Part shown: one piece after another, positions 62,069 through 63,995 of the stretch
How positions within the stretch are numbered: the first letter of the stretch is position 1
Layout: each line of letters begins with the position of its first letter
Origin: Escherichia coli
GTDB taxonomy: Bacteria; Pseudomonadota; Gammaproteobacteria; Enterobacterales; Enterobacteriaceae
Reading direction: 5' to 3' (one strand)
Length of the DNA stretch: 64,000 nucleotides
NCBI RefSeq assembly: GCF_044324875.1
Contig: NZ_CP172185.1
Translations under genes and position numbers: made by a program
The notes under the pieces: model-generated
The model's database searches: none
Told to the model about the DNA's origin: nothing
The model's input: the letters and a program-made list of their open reading frames with translations, nothing else

Positions 62069-63218
62069 GTGTTCCAGTAAATTCCTTACCTGTGAAATTC
62101 AGTCCGAAAGGTGAGTGTATAATCTTCTTATCCACTCACCGAGTTAAATATTTTTGCAATAAGAAATATCCCACTTCCGCCATCACTGAATGTTCTGCAA
62201 AACGACAGATACGAGTTCTCTCCTGAAACAGCCCTGCGTCCTATAAATATGCTTACGTGTGGCAATACATCATGATTATTAATAGATGCAATGAATCATT
62301 AGGTAGCAATTGATAGGTCAAAACATATAGGATAATTCTTGTGTGATCTGTATTTTGTGTAGCCTGGAAATTAGTAAAATTCCTGGAGATAATCAGAGAG
62401 GGAATTTCAAATAGTATAATAATTTCCCAAGAAACTATTCGTCGATTTTAGGAAAAGTCTGCTCAGGTATATCTACCGAGGGATAATGCTGGCTGTAACG
62501 CTGGTTAAAATAGATACACAAAATAATCAAGATGTATATTTTAATCGACGAAAATAATTACTTCCGGGATTATTGATGCGACTTAAATAACACCATTTAA
62601 ATGTGATATAAATCACAAATATGGCTGTGAAGAGGGTGCTGTAGATATAAATAAGAAGTACATGAGTGAATTTTAAATAGGGGAATAGTTTCTCGCTAAA
62701 CAATTTGTTGGTAATCAATCACATGCGTTCTGGTTTGAGGCAGATTGCAGGTGTTGTTACGCATAAAATTCATAGGTGGTATTATAATCAAGTAGTTAAC
62801 AGTAATGGTAAAAAATAATTTCTTGCGAAATTAGCAGCCCATTTTGAATAAGTGTGTTCCGGAGTAATCCAGAGCGCATGCTGCTTTACGTCTTTTTCAA
62901 GCCATGTTGGTTAAGCAAAAAGAGGTAGAAATAATTTCCTGAGAAATTAACTCAACATTCTGAAATGGCCAGTTTTCTGAAATTACCAGAAGACCGAATA
63001 CATTCATGCCTGAAGAATGGATTAGAAGAAACGAGACGGAAATAGATCTATTTATCCCTGCGGAAATAATTTCTGATGAAATTGTTTTCGGCTATTAAAA
63101 AGGTCAAACCGGCTGAGTGAATTTTATCCAGTTACAAACAAGTATTACCTCCAGTGTATTGGTAGCTGTTAAGCCAGGGGCGGTAGCATACCTGAAGAGA
63201 ATAGGATCACATCACCAA
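62069..63218 (+). promoter_or_regulatory. kps region 3 promoter and long untranslated leader upstream of kpsM
   Basis: 1.15-kb AT-rich non-coding interval ending at kpsM; contains three copies of a palindromic motif and an ops element (listed separately). Confidence 0.55.
63179..63186 (+). promoter_or_regulatory. ops (operon polarity suppressor, JUMPstart core) GGCGGTAG, RfaH recruitment site
   Basis: Exact GGCGGTAG 8-mer 33 nt upstream of the kpsM ATG, in the expected orientation. Confidence 0.55.
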
Positions 63219-63995
63219 ATGGCAAGAAGTGGATTTGAAGTCCAGAAAGTCACCGTAGAGGCATTATTTCTACGAGAAATACGAACACGCTTTGGTAAGT
63301 TCCGTCTGGGATATCTGTGGGCGATTCTCGAACCCTCTGCGCATTTGCTGATACTGTTGGGCATTTTTGGTTACATTATGCACCGCACGATGCCAGACAT
63401 CTCATTCCCGGTGTTTTTACTTAATGGCCTGATTCCCTTTTTTATCTTTAGCAGTATCAGCAATCGTTCTGTAGGTGCTATTGAAGCGAATCAGGGGCTG
63501 TTTAATTATCGACCAGTAAAACCCATCGATACGATCATTGCACGCGCACTGCTTGAGACACTGATTTACGTTGCTGTTTATATTCTGCTTATGCTCATTG
63601 TCTGGATGGCAGGCGAATATTTCGAGATAACAAATTTTTTACAACTTGTGGCTACCTGGAGCCTGCTGATCATTCTTTCATGTGGCGTCGGCTTAATATT
63701 CATGGTCGTTGGTAAAACTTTCCCCGAAATGCAAAAGGTTCTGCCGATACTGCTTAAGCCGCTGTATTTCATCTCCTGCATCATGTTCCCTCTACACTCG
63801 ATTCCAAAGCAATACTGGTCATATCTACTCTGGAACCCATTAGTGCATGTCGTGGAGTTAAGCCGCGAGGCAGTTATGCCTGGCTATATCAGCGAAGGCG
63901 TGAGTCTGAACTACCTGGCAATGTTCACTCTGGTCACCCTGTTCATCGGTCTGGCGTTATACCGAACGCGTGAAGAGGCAATGCTGACATCATGA
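63219..63995 (+). CDS. kpsM: capsule polysaccharide ABC exporter permease (ABC-2 type)
   Basis: Start MARSGFEVQKVTVEALFLREIRTRFGKFRLGYLWAILEP (codon 35 of track ORF 63117..63995), 258 aa. Confidence 0.9.
   Translation: MARSGFEVQKVTVEALFLREIRTRFGKFRLGYLWAILEPSAHLLILLGIFGYIMHRTMPDISFPVFLLNGLIPFFIFSSISNRSVGAIEANQGLFNYRPVKPIDTIIARALLETLIYVAVYILLMLIVWMAGEYFEITNFLQLVATWSLLIILSCGVGLIFMVVGKTFPEMQKVLPILLKPLYFISCIMFPLHSIPKQYWSYLLWNPLVHVVELSREAVMPGYISEGVSLNYLAMFTLVTLFIGLALYRTREEAMLTS

Follow-up and report, generated by a model that had tools for sequence, protein, structure and literature searches.

The ops Element of a JUMPstart Sequence in the Region 3 Leader Before kpsM in an Escherichia coli Group 2 Capsule Cluster

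The 8-mer GGCGGTAG, the core shared by ops (operon polarity suppressor) elements, lies just before kpsM in the stretch of Escherichia coli DNA analyzed here (64,000 nucleotides; hereafter the window), and it raises the question whether RNA polymerase acquires RfaH at this site on its way into the capsule genes. A review places the promoter PR3 741 bp before kpsM in K5 and an ops 28 bp before the same gene (PMC8960920), and Stevens et al. reported in 1997 that read-through of region 3 transcripts into region 2 depends on RfaH (cited in PMC8960920). The kps ops/JUMPstart is already described and, for the sequence found in the window, experimentally characterized: it has been known since 1997, and a genome-wide study of 2022 confirmed it for the identical sequence. 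We conclude, with a probability of roughly 93%, that the feature is an ops element within a JUMPstart, that it belongs to the leader of region 3 in an E. coli group 2 (kps) capsule cluster, and that it loads RfaH.

The locus, at pheV/yghD, is region 3 of a standard group 2 (kps) capsule cluster of E. coli. Within the window, gspH to gspL precede yghD/gspM, which matched NCBIfam NF007274 with 399.9 bits (cutoff 352) and is annotated as yghD at the equivalent place in TUM14771, CFT073, and other genomes. KpsM is 98% identical to CFT073 c3698/KpsM and matched Pfam ABC2_membrane with 56.7 bits (cutoff 26.9). Its top NCBIfam match, the KpsM equivalog, scored below the cutoff (188 vs 300), so the gene name rests on the c3698 identity and on synteny. 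The position of kpsT is annotated as an ABC transporter ATP-binding protein in TUM14771 and others. The closest complete genome, TUM14771 (99.9% identical over 62069-63300), has the layout yghD, kpsM, kpsT, three region 2 genes, convergent kpsSCUDEF, and then pheV. Together with kpsM/kpsT and yghD in the window, this layout bears out the assignment to group 2 capsule region 3 made in the initial annotation. The non-coding region from yghD/gspM to kpsM spans 1150 nt and has a GC content of 30-39% compared to 52-60% in gsp, and region 2 has 27-31% (taken from TUM14771, as the window stops at kpsT); low values of this kind in the leader and region 2 are typical of H-NS targets.

The + strand context of the 8-mer reads CAGTGTATTGGTAGCTGTTAAGCCAGGGGCGGTAGCATACCTGAAGAGAATAGGATCACATCACCAAATGGCAAGA. 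The sense orientation claimed for GGCGGTAG in the leader directly before kpsM proved correct, with an exact match at 63179-63186 on the + strand, which is also the kpsM strand. Between the 8-mer and the kpsM ATG (63219-63221) are 32 bases, with the A of the ATG being the 33rd. The annotated separation of 33 nt thus holds as a distance to that A, whereas the coordinate of 63219 given as the end of the feature is already base 1 of kpsM. The claim is further refined in that the functional unit is the 12-nt ops GGCGGTAGCATA (63179-63190, +), which starts 40 nt and ends 28 nt 5' of kpsM, inside a 39-nt JUMPstart, rather than the 8-mer alone. Coordinates are collected in Table 1.

Table 1. Features of the region 3 leader and its flanking genes (window coordinates).
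Feature	Position	Strand	Basis or remark
yghD/gspM, last type II secretion operon gene	61532-62068	+	NCBIfam NF007274; upstream boundary of the region 3 regulatory region
Stable hairpin	62110-62140	+	42 nt after the gspM stop; inverted repeat with 13-nt arms
Putative PR3 promoter zone	62351-62375	+	TATTTT at 62351-62356 a possible -10; projected start 62364-62375
5' untranslated leader of the kpsMT/region 2 transcript	62364-63218	+	~845-856 nt, AT-rich; start projected
122-nt leader segment, long allele	62807-62928	+	Leader alignment; replaced by 6 nt in the short allele
13-bp hairpin	63061-63091	+	Strongest copy of the repeat AAATAATTTC-N4-GAAATT
JUMPstart	63152-63190	+	Hairpin, GGTAGC direct repeat, and ops; Rfam RF01707
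ops, 12 nt, GGCGGTAGCATA	63179-63190	+	Identical 12-mer RfaH-bound in CFT073; base roles from PMC5995543
ops-to-ATG spacer, 28 nt	63191-63218	+	Sole SD-like AGGA at 63203-63206, 12 nt before the ATG
kpsM, permease of the KpsMT capsule ABC exporter, 258 aa	63219-63995	+	CFT073 identity, Pfam, synteny
kpsT start	63992-64000	+	ATG overlaps the kpsM stop as ATGA; gene cut by the window end

The whole window was searched against all 4227 Rfam families. RF01707 (JUMPstart) matched at 63152-63190 (39 nt, +) over model positions 1-38 of 38 and scored 53.6 bits, where the gathering threshold of the family is 35; the E-value was 1.9e-9 in the window-wide search and 6e-11 in a search of the surrounding 2 kb. 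The match was unique in the window, a single one was likewise found in the kps cluster of TUM14771, and no other Rfam family matched the kps leader in the window search. Counted alone over both strands of the 64-kb window, the 8-mer GGCGGTAG gave 2 matches against 1.29 expected, with at least 2 in 40 of 100 shuffles; this count is statistically unremarkable, and significance comes from the 39-nt JUMPstart. The second copy, at 22232, is in frame on the + strand within the gene for a 499-aa PHO4-family phosphate transporter, and it lacks T11 because the 8-mer continues as ...GCACT. In CFT073, 34 intragenic ops-like sites gave no RfaH signal, and two of these (sucA and clbB) are the identical 12-mer (PMC9765446). 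By analogy, the 22232 copy likely shares the fate of the RfaH-unbound intragenic CFT073 sites; the supplement of PMC9765446, searched for pitB or the 22232-type 12-mer, contained nothing relevant. The expected count, the copy in the transporter gene, and the silent CFT073 sites would all suit an 8-mer that is a functionless chance occurrence. Against this idea, the copy before kpsM sits in the sense orientation in a non-coding leader, inside a full-length JUMPstart match well above threshold, at the published distance to kpsM, and it is invariant across diverged leader alleles. Chance occurrence is refuted by the JUMPstart match, the leader invariance, and the CFT073 identity, and we consider it scarcely credible. 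As the copy at 22232 illustrates, a bare 8-mer arises by chance, and ops matches of this length need the full JUMPstart model as backing.

To place the element among related leaders, we aligned those of the window, TUM14771, an O2:K1 APEC strain, AVS0575, C41(DE3), SCAID_WND1, and MS1050. From 63145 to the ATG, the seven sequences are invariant save at positions 63177, 63188, 63201, 63207, and 63215, with only 63177 and 63188 falling within the 39-nt JUMPstart; the leader alleles are otherwise ~87-94% identical. The ops core, including G5/T6 and C3:G8, is invariant in all seven. At ops position 10 (63188), the window, TUM14771, and SCAID_WND1 carry A and the other aligned leaders carry G; position 12 is A in 7/7. 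The exact 70-nt segment 63152-63221 occurs in 209 complete E. coli genomes; this exact-copy count alone is usable, as megablast with the 70-nt query undercounts, K1-type alleles offering it no exact word of 28 nt.

The element's sequence and position, its orientation, family, and conservation, and the locus around it were observed directly; RfaH occupancy and RfaH-dependent polymerase progress have been published for the identical CFT073 sequence and are supported here by analogy. Over 63145-63225 (81 nt), the window and CFT073 do not differ at any base, and the ops coordinates given for CFT073 fall exactly on 63179-63190; because of this identity and coincidence, the CFT073 experimental result applies to the window sequence. 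Data set S2 of that study lists the kps ops as GGCGGTAGCATA, at -40 to kpsM and 817 nt from the predicted transcription start site (TSS), with a UTR of 846 nt (PMC9765446). By ChIP-seq, kps was among four loci bound by RfaH in wild-type CFT073, the RfaH signal began at the kps ops, and RfaH stayed on polymerase through the transcription unit (PMC9765446). In the ΔrfaH strain, RNA polymerase occupancy 5.4 kb downstream fell to <=0.1 to 0.34 of the wild-type level, the range of the RfaH-dependent travelling ratio for wzx, kps, and rfa (PMC9765446). All of the CFT073 RfaH targets were coated by H-NS/StpA (PMC9765446). These ChIP-seq and ΔrfaH data on the identical sequence, together with the review (PMC8960920), support the RfaH-dependent antitermination proposed in the initial annotation, to which we add that it serves chiefly to express the distal genes of region 2, which are serotype-specific.

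The individual bases of the element can be related to published structure-function work on ops, in which C3:G8 forms the stem of a hairpin in the non-template strand, G5 and T6 make base-specific contacts with RfaH, positions 4, 5, 7, and 8 are essential for RfaH recruitment, and T11-G12 makes the pause (PMC5995543). In the window, the stem pair corresponds to C3 at 63181 and G8 at 63186, and the bases read by RfaH are G5 at 63183 and T6 at 63184. The recruitment bases are all intact (C 63181, G 63182, G 63183, T 63184, A 63185, and G 63186). The pause position T11 is present at 63189, but A occupies position 12 (63190) instead of the consensus G, so that the site departs from T11-G12. Such a site might be read as a weakened or decaying ops, with A12 (and A10) leading to a short pause, poor RfaH loading, and expression largely independent of RfaH. 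The validated K-12 RfaH targets do all carry T11-G12 and the G12C substitution abolished the U11 pause in vitro and lowered RfaH stimulation in vivo (PMC5995543); the Rfam consensus also ends in G, and the paralogous O-antigen JUMPstart has GTG. Recruitment of RfaH in vitro nevertheless survived G12C (PMC5995543), and the presence of A12 in 7/7 kps leaders, including K1, marks it as a conserved family trait rather than decay. Moreover, the identical CFT073 12-mer binds RfaH and gives RfaH-dependent polymerase progression, and the RfaH-bound CFT073 site c1882, which ends in GTA, also has A12 (PMC9765446). From these two A12 sites bound by RfaH in CFT073, we take G12 to be typical yet not strictly required. 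Decay of the element, already largely refuted by the CFT073 ChIP-seq, is very improbable, although pausing of polymerase may be weaker at the A12 ops than at waa or rfb.

We also considered whether the JUMPstart/ops acts mainly as RNA, such that ribosome access to kpsM is gated by folding of the ~100 nt at the 3' end of the leader or by base pairing with the small RNA RyhB, and RfaH recruitment is secondary. Rfam models a 5-bp hairpin pairing 63159-63163 with 63173-63177 (U59-G77, U60-A76, G61-C75, G62-C74, and U63-G73), and the variable stem position 63177, which is G in the window or A in K1, keeps the pairing as U-G or U-A. The GGTAGC direct repeat occupies 63161-63166 and 63182-63187. The 39-mer RNA was no more stable than its shuffles (z +0.85), the same was true of 63140-63240 (z +1.17), and minimum-free-energy folding of JUMPstart did not select the Rfam hairpin, though its pairs can form. 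A hairpin role for JUMPstart is without support from folding, and the unremarkable RNA stability fits ops being read as non-template-strand DNA (PMC5995543). With respect to RyhB, a published prediction has it pair with the kpsM leader around ops, and a kpsM-leader::gfp fusion was reported to be activated in a RyhB-dependent manner (PMC11988350); the predicted pairing may provide an added layer of control. The poor placement of the kpsM Shine-Dalgarno (SD) sequence would also accommodate control at the ribosome. The ChIP-seq, however, shows RfaH loading at the site and the ΔrfaH defect is one of transcription (PMC9765446). A role as RNA is compatible with RfaH loading at ops; as the primary function of the element, it is improbable.

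Upstream of ops, the leader includes the likely origin of the transcript. The RNA-seq TSS of CFT073 (3530138; Data set S2 of PMC9765446) projects to window position 62375, and the K5 PR3 distance of 741 bp, carried over by alignment of a short K1-type allele, projects to 62364. The two projected starts are 11 nt apart and both lie 3' of the TATTTT hexamer, and the PR3 start would accordingly fall at ~62364-62375, as projected from CFT073 and K5. A naive placement of PR3 at 62478, 741 bp before the ATG and beside TATATC, was ruled out because the window has a 122-nt insertion absent from short alleles, and 62364 and 62375 agree instead. A promoter consensus scan of the leader found sites no more commonly than in shuffles and is uninformative in such AT-rich DNA. 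The ops is non-coding and situated between the projected TSS and kpsM; no conserved or annotated open reading frame was found on the + strand of the leader. The literature describes control by H-NS/SlyA and a modulatory contribution of the long UTR (PMC8960920).

Beyond the gspM stop, the segment 62105-62160 folds with -14.5 kcal/mol (z -3.9). The hairpin at 62110-62140 is missing from the list of the terminator scan because it lacks a T-run; it is probably where the gsp transcript ends and what insulates the kps leader. The scan gave no terminator-like site in the leader, and those in the downstream operon of TUM14771 were at chance level. The leader exists in two length alleles: the long allele is present in the window, TUM14771, CFT073, SCAID_WND1, and AVS0575, and the short allele in K1, C41(DE3), and MS1050. 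The 122-nt segment that distinguishes them is chromosomal and single-copy; among 5426 complete E. coli genomes, 469 carry it, and these carriers make up ~27% of the 1729 E. coli genomes that match the leader. The segment is bounded by the hairpin motif AAATAATTTC-N4-GAAATT, copies of which begin at 62813, 62929, and 63064, with weaker ones at 62417 and 62552. Tandem Repeats Finder reported nothing in the leader, the copies being dispersed and not tandem. The strongest, at 63061-63091, folds with -13.4 kcal/mol (z -7.35), a value equalled in 0 of 200 shuffles.

Combining the observed sequence with the published data, we propose the following course of events. Transcription would start at PR3, ~850 nt upstream, and polymerase would traverse an AT-rich, H-NS-bound leader. 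On transcription of 63179-63190, the non-template GGCGGTAGCATA would be exposed in the bubble, and the tiny C3:G8 hairpin would offer G5 and T6 to RfaH, which would bind, unfold, and displace NusG on polymerase. The source strain presumably carries rfaH, the gene lying outside the window. Once loaded, RfaH would remain on polymerase across kpsM and kpsT and then across the low-GC, serotype-specific genes of region 2, where it would counter pausing, Rho-dependent termination, and H-NS/StpA roadblocks. The refolded KOW domain probably brings the ribosome to kpsM, which has no well-placed SD sequence, and we infer that ribosome recruitment at kpsM is assisted by RfaH in this way. Without RfaH or ops, transcripts would be expected to end before region 2 and the capsule to be absent. 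The site would matter accordingly: without RfaH loading here, the serotype-specific capsule synthesis genes would go untranscribed, and the capsule is a major virulence factor of extraintestinal E. coli.

Comparison with known systems identifies the closest relatives of the element. The group 2 region 3 ops/JUMPstart of K5 (PMC8960920) and of the K2 strain CFT073 (PMC9765446) is the same element as that of the window, sharing the 12-mer GGCGGTAGCATA, the start at -40, the 28-nt spacer, and the yghD/gspM and kpsMT flanks, with no substantial difference. Relative to K1, C41(DE3), AVS0575, and MS1050, the window has A rather than G at ops position 10, and relative to K1, C41(DE3), and MS1050 only, it has the 122-nt insertion. 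The ops elements of waaQ (rfaQ), rfb/O-antigen, wza of colanic acid, and hlyCABD have, like kps, the GGCGGTAG core on the non-template strand of the 5' leader, and in all of these cases RfaH is recruited to H-NS-coated, horizontally acquired operons for envelope or virulence functions. Those elements end in TG (GGCGGTAGCGTG or GCATG), whereas the kps ops ends in TA; furthermore, the distance between ops and TSS is ~817 nt in kps and ranges over 27-135 nt in rfa, wzx, and hly (PMC9765446, Data set S2). The paralogous JUMPstart between galF and the O-antigen genes closely resembles that of kps over the 39 nt but ends in GTG. A more distant parallel is provided by UpxY at Bacteroides capsule operons, where a NusG paralogue recruited in the leader of a long polysaccharide operon makes polymerase processive, as RfaH does (PMC11213015). 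UpxY is a different protein with a different recognition sequence and comes from another phylum, and the likeness is one of analogy only.

Mildly new, and descriptive only, are the conserved A12, the weak SD of kpsM, and the two leader length alleles with their repeated hairpin motif. The kps ops represents a naturally occurring, conserved G12A form without the +1 G of the consensus pause, at an unusually large distance (~820 nt) from its promoter. One speculative interpretation, which we regard as rather unlikely, is that weaker pausing at this ops, together with the length or hairpin content of the leader, sets the number of polymerases that arrive and acquire RfaH. If this were true, the capsule level would be tuned allele by allele.

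The region of the kpsM start codon provided a further observation. The gene is without a well-placed SD sequence, and its anti-SD duplex energy of -4.0 kcal/mol ranks 15th among 27 genes of the locus. The weak and distant SD is consistent with RfaH-assisted ribosome recruitment rather than proof of it.

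In all seven of the aligned kps leaders, position 12 of the ops element (63190), the RfaH loading site ahead of kpsM, is A; both the consensus and the Rfam model carry G there, which is the +1 base in the consensus pause. Position 10 (63188) is A or G according to the kps leader allele. RfaH was bound at the kps ops carrying A10 and A12 in the CFT073 data (PMC9765446). At the second copy of the core 8-mer, GGCGGTAG, the 12-mer reads GGCGGTAGCACT, T11 is missing, and JUMPstart is absent around the site. This copy is most likely a chance, non-functional occurrence by analogy with the 34 intragenic sites of CFT073 that gave no RfaH signal (PMC9765446). 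For kpsM itself, AGGA at 63203-63206, 12 nt from the ATG, is the only Shine-Dalgarno-like sequence, and its anti-SD pairing ranked 15th among 27 local genes.

Coordinates of features in the window and in the closest complete genome
Feature	Position	Strand or orientation	Details
ES173, E. coli small RNA	1143-1206	(-)	Rfam gathering-level match, 99 bits
PHO4-family phosphate transporter gene	21069-22568		499 aa
Second GGCGGTAG	22232-22239	sense	within the transporter gene
C0719, E. coli small RNA	43126-43347	(-)	Rfam gathering-level match, 294.5 bits
Stable hairpin	62110-62140		13-nt arms; -14.5 kcal/mol, z -3.9
122-nt segment of the kps region 3 leader	62807-62928		leader alignments
Leader repeats of AAATAATTTC-N4-GAAATT(A)	62813, 62929, 63064		weaker at 62417, 62552
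TUM14771 region 2	L001 (TUM14771 locus) 22689-28641		three genes; past window end

The leader occurs in two lengths, the 122-nt segment being common to the window, CFT073, TUM14771, SCAID_WND1, and AVS0575 and replaced by 6 nt in K1, C41(DE3), and MS1050. Of 5426 complete E. coli genomes, 469 carry the segment, as a single copy, and it explains why the CFT073 kps UTR (846 nt; PMC9765446) exceeds the 741 bp reported for K5 (PMC8960920). Two copies of the repeated leader motif flank this indel. Every copy forms a small hairpin, the third being a 13-bp hairpin (63061-63091, -13.4 kcal/mol, z -7.35), and the few allele differences within these hairpins are mostly pair-breaking, not compensatory. 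The capsule regulation review (PMC8960920) makes no mention of the motif.

At the upstream end of the leader, the stable hairpin lies 42 nt past the yghD/gspM stop codon, is without a T-run, and is probably where the gsp transcript ends; in the other junction haplotype (K1, CFT073) the arms are identical and the loop differs. The first ∼170 nt past gspM (62069-62240) fall into two strongly diverged haplotypes, the window and AVS0575 versus K1, C41, SCAID_WND1, MS1050, and CFT073. The remainder of the leader is at least 90% alike. The pattern suggests that the core genome and the kps island meet here at an old recombination junction.

The C0719 and ES173 matches bear no relation to the kps ops finding. 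In TUM14771, region 2 encodes a cytidylyltransferase-domain protein, a 1060-aa CapA-like protein, and a WcbI-family acetyltransferase, with a GC content of 27-31%.
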